Source: Escherichia coli (GTDB taxonomy: Bacteria; Pseudomonadota; Gammaproteobacteria; Enterobacterales; Enterobacteriaceae). Taken from it: a stretch of DNA of 64,000 nt. A program made the translations under genes and the position numbers. Numbering within the stretch: the stretch's first letter is position 1; each line of letters opens with the position of its first letter. This document shows positions 12,397 to 63,699 of the stretch, piece by piece. Under the pieces are notes generated by a model, which was not told the DNA's origin, made no database searches, and saw only the letters and a program-made list of their open reading frames with translations. Location of the stretch: the NCBI RefSeq assembly GCF_003991155.1, contig NZ_CP031293.1, one strand, 5' to 3'.

Positions 12397-12795
12397 ACCA
12401 AAGAGTAGTTGGCTTTGGGATTGGATGAATGAGCAGGCTGATGCTCGACCAATGTATAAACAGCGCTCATGGCAAGCAGTAACCAATCTGCGCCTCAAGA
12501 CAGCGTCACTGGTAGTGCGGGCGCTCTAACCAGTAAGCCGGAGTTCAGCACCGGCCATCCAATCGCCAAAGTCAATTCCATAGGCGTTATGCAGCCGCCA
12601 CCTATTCAAGAAAGCTGCACAAGAGGTAGGAGGATTTATGTGAATACTTACATTCAATTGAGAGATTAATTAAATAGAACTGATCGAGCAGAGTCCATAA
12701 AGGCTCATAAATGCTCTTCCATCCCCGTCTAATTGGCGGGGAAGGAAACCACTTTGTAATAAAAAAATTCCAAAGTTGTTTCATCGGAGGTCAAC

Positions 12796-13095
12796 ATGAC
12801 AGTAGTCATTACATATCTAGCTGACGATAACGCCAGAAATCGCCGCAGAGCACGCAGGCAGGCTCAACGTGAACAGGCAATGCAAGAACAGCGACTGGCG
12901 CGAAAGATTGCGCTAAAGCTCTCTGGTTGCGTCAGAGCAGACAAAGCAGCATCACTCGGAAGCCTTCGCTGCAAGAAGGCAGAAGAAGTCGAGAGTAAAC
13001 AGAACCGTATTTACTACCGCAAGCCACGCAGTGAAATGGGTGTGACTTGTGTTGGTCGCCAGAAAATGAAATTAGGCAGCAAACCACTTATTTGA
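12796..13095 (+). CDS. N: Antitermination protein N
   Basis: Arg-rich motif NARNRRRARRQAQ; C-terminus RIYYRKPRSEMGVTCVGRQKMKLGSKPLI resembles lambda N. Confidence 0.8.
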   Translation: MTVVITYLADDNARNRRRARRQAQREQAMQEQRLARKIALKLSGCVRADKAASLGSLRCKKAEEVESKQNRIYYRKPRSEMGVTCVGRQKMKLGSKPLI

Positions 13096-13106: not shown

Positions 13107-13730
13107 ATGTCATCAATCCGCTTAACTACGAGAATGAAAGAGAAAATCGCTCGTAACGCTTTAATTAAGTCTGGGGTTTTCACTGAACTTGAAGAAGTAA
13201 CAAAGTTAAAGAACCAGCTTGCACTTGACGCCAGAGTTATTGCGTTTGGCGGTAAAAAGAAAACTGAGGAAGTGGATCAGTTATCATCCAGGTTAGTAGC
13301 TATAAGTGAAGAACTTGAAAAGATGGGATGTTCATTTTACTCATACGATGTTCGTTCTACTTCAATTTATCTGACTGTATCTGGCAGAAGGGTTGGATGG
13401 CATTCATATGGGAAAGACGGCAACGGCGAAGATATATTGCTCCCTACTCCAACCAAAGATAAATGCATGTTTGATGCAGAACACGAAATAACAAAAAGGT
13501 TTGATGAAATCTGCGCATTGCAACAAAAACTTGAAGCCAAGAAAAAGGATATCGAATCAAATGTATGGGCTGCTTTGAACTCAGTCACAACAGTTAAGCG
13601 ACTTATTGAAGTTTGGCCTGAAAGCAAAGAATTGCTACCAAAAGAAGCAGACAAAGCAAGTACAGCACTTCCTGCTTTACGGGTAGAAGATTTGAATAAG
13701 ATGATTGGACTTCCTTCCGAGTCCGCATAG
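13107..13730 (+). CDS. Hypothetical phage protein (207 aa) in the ral/sieB-equivalent position
   Basis: ORF with GAGGA RBS directly after N; no family recognised. Confidence 0.5.
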   Translation: MSSIRLTTRMKEKIARNALIKSGVFTELEEVTKLKNQLALDARVIAFGGKKKTEEVDQLSSRLVAISEELEKMGCSFYSYDVRSTSIYLTVSGRRVGWHSYGKDGNGEDILLPTPTKDKCMFDAEHEITKRFDEICALQQKLEAKKKDIESNVWAALNSVTTVKRLIEVWPESKELLPKEADKASTALPALRVEDLNKMIGLPSESA

Positions 13731-13864
13731 TCGGCCTTTATTTTTGGCACTAACAACAGAATAAACACTGCACTGTGTATTCATTCCAACGAGTGAATAC
13801 ACGGAGCAATGTCGCTCTTAACTAAACAGGAGCCGACTTGTTCTGATTATTGGAAATCTTCTTT

Positions 13865-13891
13865 GCCCTCCAGTGTGAGGGCGATTTTTTT
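13865..13891 (+). terminator. tL-like intrinsic terminator
   Basis: GCCCTC-CAGTGT-GAGGGC followed by GATTTTTTT, 12 nt upstream of next start codon. Confidence 0.5.
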
Positions 13892-13903
13892 GATGGAGGA
13901 TAT

Positions 13904-14872
13904 ATGAGTGAAGTAACAGATTTAGTTGTTATTGAAAAAGCAAATGCAATGACTGTATTTCAGTCTGCCGACCAGATTGAAGAAATCCTTCAAAGGGTTG
14001 AACGTGAAGTTATGTCCTTTGTGCCTGATATCACAACGGCAAAGGGCAGAAAGGAGATCGCTTCTCTGGCGTATAAAGTTGCGCAGACGAAAACATATCT
14101 CGATGGTCTTGGCAAAGACCTTGTTGCTGAACTGAAGGAAATTCCAAAGCTAATTGATGCCAACCGCAAGACAGTGCGCGATCGCCTTGATGAGCTGAAA
14201 GCCAAGGCACGCCAGCCTCTTACTGATTATGAGGAAGAACAGGCGCGGATTAAAGCCGAAGAAGAAGCTAAGGCAGCAGCTGAAGCTCTCGCAAAGCAAA
14301 TTGAGTCTGACCATGAAATAGCTATTTTGATGGATCGCGAATTTGACCGCCAAAGAGAAGAGGCAAGACTCAAAGCGGAGCAGGAAAAGCGAGAGCATGA
14401 AGAACGCTTAAAAAGAGAAGCTGAAGAGAAAGCCAGAGCAGAAGCCGAAGCAAAGGCAAAAGCCGAAATTGAAGCAGCAGCAAGGCGAGAAGCAGAAGCT
14501 AAGGCCGCAGCGGAACGTGCAGAGCGTGAACGCATTGAAGCCGAGCAACGAGCACAGCGCGAAGCAAAAGAGGCAGCAGAACGAGCTGAAAGAGAAAAGC
14601 AGGCGGCAATTGAAGCAGAACGCCGAAAAGCACAGGAGGAGGCTGAACGAATCCGGCGCGAGGCTGAAGCAAAAGAGCAAGCCAGAATAGCAGAAGAAAA
14701 AAGAATCAAGGACGAAGAAGAGCGTAGAGCAAAGGATAAAGCTCACCGGAAAGAAGTAAATAACAAAATACTTGCTGACCTTATCAAGGTTGGCGCATCA
14801 GAAGATGTTGCTAAAAATATCATAACAGCCATCGTAAAAGGCGAAGTATTCGCAACAAAAATAACCTACTAA
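13904..14872 (+). CDS. Hypothetical protein with long charged E/R/K/A-rich single alpha-helix segment
   Basis: N-terminal about 110 aa domain, about 170 aa low-complexity AEAK/ERAE repeats, short C-terminal domain; GGAGG RBS. Confidence 0.5.
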   Translation: MSEVTDLVVIEKANAMTVFQSADQIEEILQRVEREVMSFVPDITTAKGRKEIASLAYKVAQTKTYLDGLGKDLVAELKEIPKLIDANRKTVRDRLDELKAKARQPLTDYEEEQARIKAEEEAKAAAEALAKQIESDHEIAILMDREFDRQREEARLKAEQEKREHEERLKREAEEKARAEAEAKAKAEIEAAARREAEAKAAAERAERERIEAEQRAQREAKEAAERAEREKQAAIEAERRKAQEEAERIRREAEAKEQARIAEEKRIKDEEERRAKDKAHRKEVNNKILADLIKVGASEDVAKNIITAIVKGEVFATKITY

Positions 14873-14895: not shown

Positions 14896-15027
14896 ATGAT
14901 TTACGCAATCGCGGGAGGCGCTCGCATGGGTGCCTTCCAACTAAATGAATCTTTACTTGAACGAATCACCCGTAAATTACGTGACGGATGGAAAAGAGTT
15001 GAGGTCTTATTATGCGCAATGAAATAG
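14896..15027 (+). CDS. cIII: CIII (FtsH inhibitor)
   Basis: 43 aa MIYAIAGG...ESLLERITRKLRDGWKR, lambda CIII core motif; below ORF-track cutoff. Confidence 0.65.
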   Translation: MIYAIAGGARMGAFQLNESLLERITRKLRDGWKRVEVLLCAMK

Positions 15028-15164
15028 CCATCAATCACCAGATGCTTCGTGCTGCACAGAACAAAGCAGTAATAGCCAGATTTATTGGTGATTCAAAAAT
15101 GTGGCTTGAAGCAAATAAAGCAATGAAATCAGCTATCAACCTTCCGTGGTATCGCAGGAAATGA
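15012..15164 (+). CDS. kil: Kil-like protein
   Basis: 50 aa MRNEIAINHQMLRAAQNKAVIARFIGDSKMWLEANKAMK; FIGD motif resembles lambda Kil as recalled; overlaps cIII 3' end. Confidence 0.5.
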   Translation: MRNEIAINHQMLRAAQNKAVIARFIGDSKMWLEANKAMKSAINLPWYRRK

Positions 15165-25533: not shown

Positions 25534-25793
25534 TCTCCTTTACGGTGATAACCGTCGCGTAAGCAAAAAATTGCCCCATTTTTTTGGATTCCTCAGCGAC
25601 AACAACTGTCGATTTTTAGTAAATATCTATCCGGTACGAAGCCCGGCCTCTTGGTATGAATGATTGGTTTGAAGCAAAAAATAACCGACGCTAATTAAAC
25701 GTCGGTTTTTAGTCATTTTTTGACAGCGGCGCATTGTGCCTAAATGGGGGGGAAATGACAAGAGAATGAGAGGCTTGTCATAATAATTTTTCT

Positions 25794-28019: not shown

Positions 28020-28070
28020 ATGACACGCGTTCAATTTAAACACCACCATCATCACCATCATCCTGACTAG
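28020..28070 (+). CDS. hisL: his operon leader peptide
   Basis: MTRVQFKHHHHHHHPD, seven consecutive His codons. Confidence 0.85.
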   Translation: MTRVQFKHHHHHHHPD

Positions 28071-28134
28071 TCTTTCAGGCGATGTGTGCTGGAAGACATT
28101 CAGATCTTCCAGTGGTGCATGAACGCATGAAAAA

Positions 28135-28170
28135 GCCCCCGGAAGATCACCTTCCGGGGGCTTTTTTATT
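28135..28170 (+). terminator. his attenuator terminator
   Basis: GCCCCCGGAAG-ATCAC-CTTCCGGGGGC followed by TTTTTTATT. Confidence 0.8.
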
Positions 28171-52189: not shown

Positions 52190-52228
52190 CACGCTACCGC
52201 CCCTGGCTCAACAGCTACCAGCGTACTG
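52190..52228 (-). promoter_or_regulatory. JUMPstart element with ops (GGCGGTAGCGTG)
   Basis: Minus strand CAGTACGCTGGTAGCTGTTGAGCCAGGGGCGGTAGCGTG upstream of wzx. Confidence 0.6.
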
Positions 52229-58724: not shown

Positions 58725-59325
58725 GCCGTTTTTTGCCTGATGCGACGCTAACGCGTCTTATCAGACCTACAAGATCCGAGCACAGAACCGTAGGACGGAT
58801 AAGGCGTTCACGCCGCATCCGGCATTCAGTGCCTGATGCGACGCTGACGCGTCTTATCAGGCCTACAAGACCCGAGCACAGAGCCGTAGGACGGATAAGG
58901 CGTTTTACGCCGCATCCGGCATTCAGTGCCTGATGCGACGCTGACGCGTCTTATCAGGCCTACAAGATCCGAGCACAGAACCGTAGGCCGGATAAGGCGT
59001 TTTACGCCGCATCCGGCATTCAGTGCCTGATGCGACGCTGGCGCGTCTTATCAGGCCTACAAGACCCGAGCACAGCCCCCCAGGACGGATAAGGCGTTTT
59101 ACGCCGCATCCGGCATTCAGTGCCTGATGCGACGCTGACGCGTCTTATCAAGCCTACAAGATCCGAGCACAGAACCGTAGGCCGGATAAGGCGTTTTACG
59201 CCGCATCCGGCATTCAGTGCCTGATGCGACGCTGGCGCGTCTTATCAGGCCTACAAGACCCGAGCACAGCCCCCCAGGACGGATAAGGCGTTTTACGCCG
59301 CATCCGGCAACCGTTGCCGGAACCG
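58725..59325. repeat. Tandem REP/BIME array (about six units of about 98 bp)
   Basis: Repeated GCCTGATGCGACGCTGACGCGTCTTATCAGGCCTACAAG...GGATAAGGCGTTTACGCCGCATCCGGCA units. Confidence 0.8.
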
Positions 59326-63636: not shown

Positions 63637-63699
63637 ATCGTTACCCTTTTTCAGGCAATAGTTGGCCCTGACCGAAACGGCCAATTTTGTTTTTGTCGT

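Follow-up and report, generated by a model that had tools for sequence, protein, structure and literature searches.

What is the role of the perfect 9-bp inverted repeat that lies at 13775-13802 on the + strand of the 64-kb window (the whole stretch of DNA analysed here), in the spacer between two accessory genes of 207 and 322 amino acids? The repeat itself is exactly as an earlier note on this DNA had described it, with the arms GTGTATTCA (13775-13783) and TGAATACAC (13794-13802) separated by the 10-nt TTCCAACGAG (13784-13793). The placement between the two genes also holds, and the spacer measures 173 bp (13731-13903, from the end of the 207-aa ORF at 13730 to the ATG of the 322-aa ORF at 13904) rather than the 170 bp given there. 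The note had offered two readings, namely a protein-binding site and an RNA processing hairpin, the latter controlling the expression of the downstream gene. The evidence assembled below points to the second in part: the repeat is the center of an RNA hairpin, which most likely serves the sRNA PreS, encoded immediately 3' to it, and not the 322-aa gene.

As DNA, the repeat is unremarkable. The window contains 8 perfect 9-bp inverted repeats with loops of 3-12 nt, with 2.5 +/- 1.6 expected by chance in first-order Markov simulations, and a perfect 9-bp palindrome of this kind is not beyond chance in this window. As RNA, the pairing extends well past the repeat: three further pairs per side form inside the 10-nt spacer (U-A, U.G, C-G) and two more at the base of the repeat (U.G, C-G), yielding a continuous 14-bp stem with two G.U pairs (13773-13786/13791-13804, + strand) around a CAAC tetraloop (13787-13790). 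Below it, folding adds an A.A mismatch (13772/13805) and a lower stem UGC/GCA, such that the full hairpin spans 13769-13808 on the + strand. Its minimum free energy is -21.8 kcal/mol (z = -7.4; matched by 0 of 200 shuffles), placing it within the top 0.14% of the 40-nt windows of the 64-kb window, where 14 places are equally or more stable. The two G.U pairs of the stem are present only in the + strand transcript, and the - strand counterpart reaches just -16.2 kcal/mol.

Several familiar classes of RNA element were considered for this hairpin. It is not an intrinsic terminator: it is followed by GGAGCAAUG, with no U tract, and the only + strand call of the terminator scan is at 13863-13891. 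Nor does it have the form of a nut site (boxA+boxB), its loop being the 4-nt CAAC on a 14-bp stem and not a GNRA-like pentaloop. A lone CGCTCTTA, which we take to be the lambda boxA 8-mer, occurs at 13813-13820, downstream of the hairpin and once in the window against 1.9 occurrences by chance, and the boxA/nut reading was accordingly rejected. Rfam models yielded nothing relevant to the repeat at gathering thresholds across the whole window; at permissive thresholds over 13650-13950 none rose above the gathering threshold, the best match (mir-137, 20 bits against the 56.7 of its threshold) being noise.

The region corresponds to the PL (early-left) operon of a lambdoid prophage, running on the + strand. 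An N-like ORF (12796-13095) precedes the 207-aa gene (13107-13730), whose near-identical homologue is labeled 'Nmad5 family putative nucleotide modification protein' in RefSeq, in a 98.6%-identical prophage of E. coli ISHS7. The 322-aa gene (13904-14872), with a GGAGG ribosome-binding site at 13895-13899, has a homologue annotated as 'cell envelope biogenesis protein TolA', and cIII follows at 15012-15164. The 98.6%-identical prophage shows the order LexA-family repressor, N-like, 'Nmad5 family', 'TolA', cIII, kil and recombination genes. A nutL-like element lies about 55 nt 5' of the N-like ORF, comprising a boxA-like TGCTCTT (12712-12718) and then a CCCCG/CGGGG hairpin (12723-12741). Elsewhere in the window, Rfam matches to STnc240, the His operon leader, JUMPstart, five tandem copies of naRNA4 (REP-type) and algC RNA (25674-25748, 28046-28169, 52190-52228, 58793-59251 and 63641-63690) show that the prophage neighbors the his and polysaccharide genes on an enterobacterial chromosome.

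Searches with the 173-bp spacer recover 331 phage records at about 95% identity, including lambda, 434, HK97, HK620, SfI and many Stx phages. The spacer is a homologue (~95% match) of the lambda ral-ea10 intergenic region, with the homology starting at the ral stop codon and ending at the ea10 ribosome-binding site. It is the constant part of a variable neighborhood: the flanking genes are ral and ea10 in lambda, the gene for a Nun-C-terminal-peptide-containing protein and ea10 in 434, and gp45 and cIII in HK97. From precisely this interval, 'between ea10 and ral', an Hfq-dependent sRNA named LPR1 and renamed PreS was recovered by RIL-seq during lambda infection (Silverman et al. 2024, preprint, 10.1101/2024.10.31.621285). 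It is seen as a band of ~88 nt and a stronger, processed one of ~68 nt, is made in the lytic cycle only, being absent in lysogens, and acts on host genes, with dnaN translation going up and alaS down; its 3' end is a GC-rich stem with poly-U that the authors equate with the terminator tL2a (10.1101/2024.10.31.621285).

The ends of the sRNA can be carried over to the window from that work. The cloning and T7 primers start with GAGCAATGTCGCTCGTAACT and end with CCTCCAGTGTGAGGGCGATTTTTTA, and alaS pairs with PreS 42-56 in a numbering that makes the first G of GAGCAATG the +1 position (10.1101/2024.10.31.621285). Together with the deletion primers and the alignment, these define a PreS homologue at 13804-13891 on the + strand, a span of 88 nt that agrees with the northern band. 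It shares 86 of its 88 positions with the lambda sRNA, with 0 gaps, and so falls within the preprint's definition of PreS/LPR1 members (>=92% identity to lambda LPR1 and <=3 gaps; 10.1101/2024.10.31.621285). PreS positions 16-87 are the same as in lambda, including 35-58, the seed for dnaN and alaS pairing; the seed core, located approximately to 13839-13856 (the TGTTCTGATTATTGGAAA region, + strand) from the seed-deletion primers P970/P971, the alaS pairing at PreS 42-56 and the alignment, is likewise identical. The 3' end is of the Hfq type, with an 8-bp GC-rich stem (13863-13884) followed by T7 (13885-13891); this is the element called tL2a in the preprint and 'terminator' in the 434 and HK97 records, and it confirms the terminator that had been placed at 13865-13891 from inspection. 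The other T-tract structure suggested there, a weak hairpin after the first gene (GCC-N9-GGC, 13734-13748), drew no call from the terminator scan. Finally, the copy lies on the sense strand of the PL operon between N and cIII, in synteny with lambda, 434 and HK97. That this locus is a PreS module can be regarded as nearly certain.

Some features of the module vary. The change of 13818 from G to T is the lone difference from lambda in the PreS body and creates the CGCTCTTA mentioned above, probably by coincidence (again, 1 in the window against 1.9 by chance). The loop and tail of the terminator differ among phages (CAGTGT, CAATGT, TAATGT or AAGATG; T5 to T8), with the stem and the PreS body nearly invariant, and the sequence 3' of the T tract changes with the gene that follows. 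The anti-sRNAs AgvB/AsxR of EHEC prophages and the Pas sRNAs were also considered as identities and rejected, as both belong to the late PR' 'moron' region, in the neighborhood of Q and the lysis genes, and not to PL.

The relationship between hairpin and sRNA is intimate. The last base of the repeat's 3' arm is 13802, and PreS +1 (13804) is the final paired base of the 14-bp stem, although the published +1 may be approximate. The homology arm of the full-deletion primer P969 ends in ...GTGTATTCATTCCAACGAGTGAATACACG (...GAATACACG), from which it follows that the authors treated the hairpin as just outside the sRNA and left it in the deletion mutant (10.1101/2024.10.31.621285). The text of the preprint has 0 mentions of 'stem-loop', 'RNase E', 'RNase III' or 'cleavage', names no LPR1 promoter and does not address the origin of the 5' end (10.1101/2024.10.31.621285). 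A promoter of its own for PreS was sought with a sigma-70 scan, which found no promoter-like site in 13400-14100. This and the absence of PreS in lysogens both fit PL transcripts as the most likely source of PreS, in which case its 5' end would be a processing product.

To see how the hairpin is conserved, we gathered 178 PreS-like sites from IMG/VR, GTDB representative genomes and GenBank hits. A hairpin is found directly 5' of GAGCAATG in 177 of the 177 uninterrupted sites. The one exception is phage HK022 (L287:144-1200), in which IS903 is inserted in the 5' arm, at the equivalent of ~13781, leaving the PreS body intact and the hairpin disrupted; its match starting within the 5' arm reflects this insertion and was discarded as a natural variant of the stem.

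The hairpin comes in two alleles. Allele A is that of this window, lambda, 434 and HK97. Allele B, CCTATAGCAGATTT(A/G)CGAGTCTGCTATGT, has an 11-bp stem capped by a UACG or UGCG tetraloop (e.g. L015, L019 and L289). When the arms are aligned from the base, the two share the basal C-G pair, which includes PreS +1, and the top three pairs, A-U, U.G and U-A; 8 consecutive stem pairs differ on both sides between A and B, and all of them still pair. This count comes from a script that aligned the arms from the base, the MAFFT alignment being out of structural register and its pair count therefore unused. For allele B, the energy is -15.9 kcal/mol (z = -4.1; matched by 0 of 200 shuffles) on the + strand against -12.7 kcal/mol on the - strand. 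Both alleles fold better on the + strand because each carries two G.U pairs. The difference between A and B may come from a single replacement event.

Finer variation is sparse. Among point changes within allele A, with the IS903-interrupted HK022 site set aside by hand, 4 keep the pair and 6 break it, so that pair-keeping is not favored; G13803U occurs at 15 sites, a number enriched by the design of the search, and the other pair-breaking changes at one or two sites each. In two independent, rare variants (L070 and L299; 13772-13774 and 13803-13805), the A.A mismatch and the basal U.G become Watson-Crick pairs, in one through changes on the 5' side and in the other on the 3' side, giving 18 continuous pairs in each and energies of -30.4 and -28.7 kcal/mol. 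When viral contigs were searched for further alleles with HGAGCAATGTCGCTC and DGGAGCAATGTCGCTC, most matches were 15-mers expected by chance, and the real PreS sites carried only A and B. The scan of GTDB genomes yielded 8 true sites, all of allele A (E. coli, Escherichia sp., Shimwellia and three small contigs in non-enterobacterial MAGs), and one chance match in Ruegeria. These last three (L292, L295 and L299), assigned to MAGs of Segatella, Lachnospiraceae and Oxalobacter, carry PreS-hairpin modules and are almost certainly mis-binned enterobacterial phage contigs rather than pointers to true hosts.

Taken together, these observations make a structural role of the repeat at the level of RNA very probable. 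The case for selection on the RNA is built on the pair of alleles, the strand asymmetry and the invariable association with PreS, and not on fine covariation.

Our favored proposal, to which we give roughly even odds, is that the hairpin built around the repeat serves in the processing of PreS or marks its boundary, with RNase III as the probable nuclease; both the cleavage and the enzyme are what we infer. Under this proposal, the PL transcript would run through the upstream accessory gene and fold the hairpin, and an endonuclease would then cut the 3' strand of the stem at its base (about 13803/13804) to release the ~88-nt PreS. The ~68-nt form would result if the hairpin that follows were cut as well, in its AU-rich loop UAACUAAAC (~13820-13826): an RNA of that length would start near 13824, inside the loop, which is thus a plausible candidate for an RNase E site. 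For the first cut, RNase III is the most likely enzyme because the cut site would be located in double-stranded RNA and not in an AU-rich single strand. The motif of RNase E is AU-rich and single-stranded, and the context of +1, CG|GAG, appears unlike it.

The details of the stem speak partly for and partly against this enzyme. RNase III stems have at least about 11 bp around the cut; allele A offers 14 pairs plus the 3-bp lower stem, and allele B 11 plus flanking pairs. In the minimal substrate of the E. coli enzyme, a hairpin of 34 nt capped by a tetraloop, a 'distal box' of U-A and U.G is found beside the loop, and such a U-A and U.G lie exactly at the top of the allele B stem and one pair lower in allele A. 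With the register deduced from the text of Pertzev & Nicholson 2006 and not from a figure, positions 2-4 of the proximal box in allele B are U-A, A-U and U.G; in the same text-derived register, positions 2 and 4 in allele A are G-C, which are antideterminants in vitro and count against RNase III. So does the presence of only ~5 helix positions below the presumed cut. For +1 at 13804, a staggered cut would need a distance of 28 nt between its two sites, which is within the range observed in vivo (16 nt or more). A prophage of E. coli VL40 (L290:1440-1600) keeps the hairpin and GGAGCAAT, with the PreS body and terminator gone and the ribosome-binding site and start of cIII next; the retention of the hairpin without PreS counts against the PreS-processing reading.

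This last prophage would be better accommodated if the hairpin were a 3'-end stabilizer or a folding insulator and not a nuclease target, i.e. if it capped the upstream mRNA against 3' exonucleases after a cut further downstream, or prevented mispairing with PreS. A stable hairpin at the very end of the 3' UTR of the upstream cistron would suit such a function, and in the HK97-type and allele B contexts a gap of just 0-1 nt separates the upstream TAA stop from the GC(A/G)C conserved at its foot. Against it, the published +1 at 13804, as the last paired base, would put the cut inside the helix and not in a single strand, the CG|GAG around +1 does not appear to resemble the AU-rich motif of RNase E, and the hairpin always accompanies PreS while the upstream gene varies. 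We regard a stabilizer or insulator as rather improbable, and as compatible with the processing of PreS.

Could the repeat instead be a neutral passenger, a chance palindrome kept only because it sits in a highly conserved 'linker' block exchanged by recombination among lambdoid phages? The 9-bp repeat is, as noted, within chance expectation, the entire block is 95-99% identical everywhere so that conservation alone says little, and point changes within an allele break pairs as often as they keep them. What chance does not readily deliver is a second allele that, from an unrelated stem sequence, forms a hairpin alike in geometry and position, a helix made strand-specific by its G.U pairs, and a full 14-bp helix that is far beyond its shuffles (z = -7.4). 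We therefore hold this to be unlikely.

Less likely still is a function in DNA as a recombination joint or mosaic boundary, with the palindrome promoting exchange of the upstream accessory-gene slot. The homology of many phages to the window does start at about 13770, where the hairpin has its foot, the genes 5' of that point being unrelated, and the IS903 of HK022 lies inside the 5' arm; however, in other phages the homology starts at several points (13752, 13759 and 13770), a conserved GAATAA lies further upstream than the hairpin, and the strand asymmetry and the compensatory allele favor selection on the RNA.

That the repeat is a palindromic operator on the DNA, or a cis-regulator of the 322-aa gene as the earlier note had supposed and as a perfect dyad upstream of that ORF might suggest, is highly improbable: the half-sites are wholly different in allele B and 19 bp apart from center to center, no promoter-like site exists in 13400-14100, the downstream gene varies (ea10 in lambda, cIII in HK97, TolA-like here) with the hairpin staying with PreS, and an sRNA and its terminator intervene before the 322-aa gene. 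Thus, of the processing-hairpin suggestion the RNA hairpin survives, borne out by the G.U pairs, the preserved structure of allele B and the better folding of the + strand, and its supposed target does not: the interval from 13804 to 13891, up to the end of the terminator, is the PreS homologue, and nothing found ties the hairpin to expression of the 322-aa gene.

A further observation concerns the sequence just 5' of the hairpin. The motif (CA)GAATAA (13755-13764) is found a few nucleotides upstream of it in almost every context, with or without an overlapping stop codon, and is complementary to the PreS seed UUGUUCUG (13838-13849). In RNAfold predictions the PreS seed is paired with upstream RNA in 114 of the 178 precursors, suggesting that the seed may be masked in the unprocessed transcript; PreS is too invariant for a covariation test of such masking. 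These predictions permit a more elaborate, and rather doubtful, version of the processing model, in which the hairpin would be a dedicated maturation signal coupling the release of PreS to the fate of the upstream mRNA: in the uncut transcript, GAAUAA would mask the seed by forming a three-way junction with it, cleavage would be needed to activate the sRNA, and the two alleles would be alternative solutions to the same end.

The PreS/tL2a module is already known, and the hairpin is not discussed in the preprint or the accessible literature. PreS is among the first phage sRNAs shown to reprogram host replication, through raised translation of dnaN, and the hairpin offers a testable candidate for the element that defines its 5' end; HK022, as a natural mutant, can be used for testing PreS processing. 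Of 5426 complete E. coli genomes, 2236 (41%) carry the block from hairpin to terminator, with 3198 occurrences in total, and none of the 40 matches listed has an annotated feature beneath it; judged on these 40, the module is unannotated for all its prevalence. For annotation, the PL-operon 'spacer' of lambdoid prophages is to be treated as containing an sRNA gene, with a hairpin on its 5' side and a terminator at its 3' end, and not as the regulatory site of the next ORF.

Among known systems, the closest is the PreS (LPR1) locus of lambda itself, which shares with the window the position and orientation in the PL operon, the sRNA (86/88), an identical seed, the same terminator and the same hairpin immediately 5' of +1, the equivalent of the 9-bp repeat being lambda 34040-34013 on the complement strand. 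The two differ in their flanks, ral/ea10 in lambda versus Nmad5-like/TolA-like here, and in the 13818 G to T change in the sRNA body and a longer T tract in the window.

The release of an sRNA from a prophage early operon by endonucleolytic processing is itself a known kind of system, exemplified by DicF of the dicB operon in the Qin prophage, where a 190-nt form is generated by RNase III and a 53-nt form by RNase E. As with PreS, DicF lies between early-operon genes of a lambdoid prophage and exists in a long and a short form; it is cut from a polycistronic transcript and has no promoter of its own, and by analogy a like origin is proposed for PreS. In contrast, the two have no sequence similarity (there is no Rfam DicF match), and the 3' end of PreS is a terminator. 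As hairpins, the closest parallels are the minimal RNase III substrates T7 R1.1 and uR1.1, which are similarly tetraloop hairpins of ~32-34 nt; the uppermost part of the stem holds a distal box of U-A and U.G, and the presumed cut falls 11-13 nt down the 3' arm. The point of difference is that allele A, in the register adopted here from the text, has G-C where A-U or U-A is preferred in the proximal box. Another parallel is lambda sib/tI retroregulation, in which a transcript from PL contains a hairpin sensitive to RNase III, and the fate of the message 5' of the hairpin depends on it. That system involves another locus and another sequence, whereas in the present one the functional output is the downstream sRNA.
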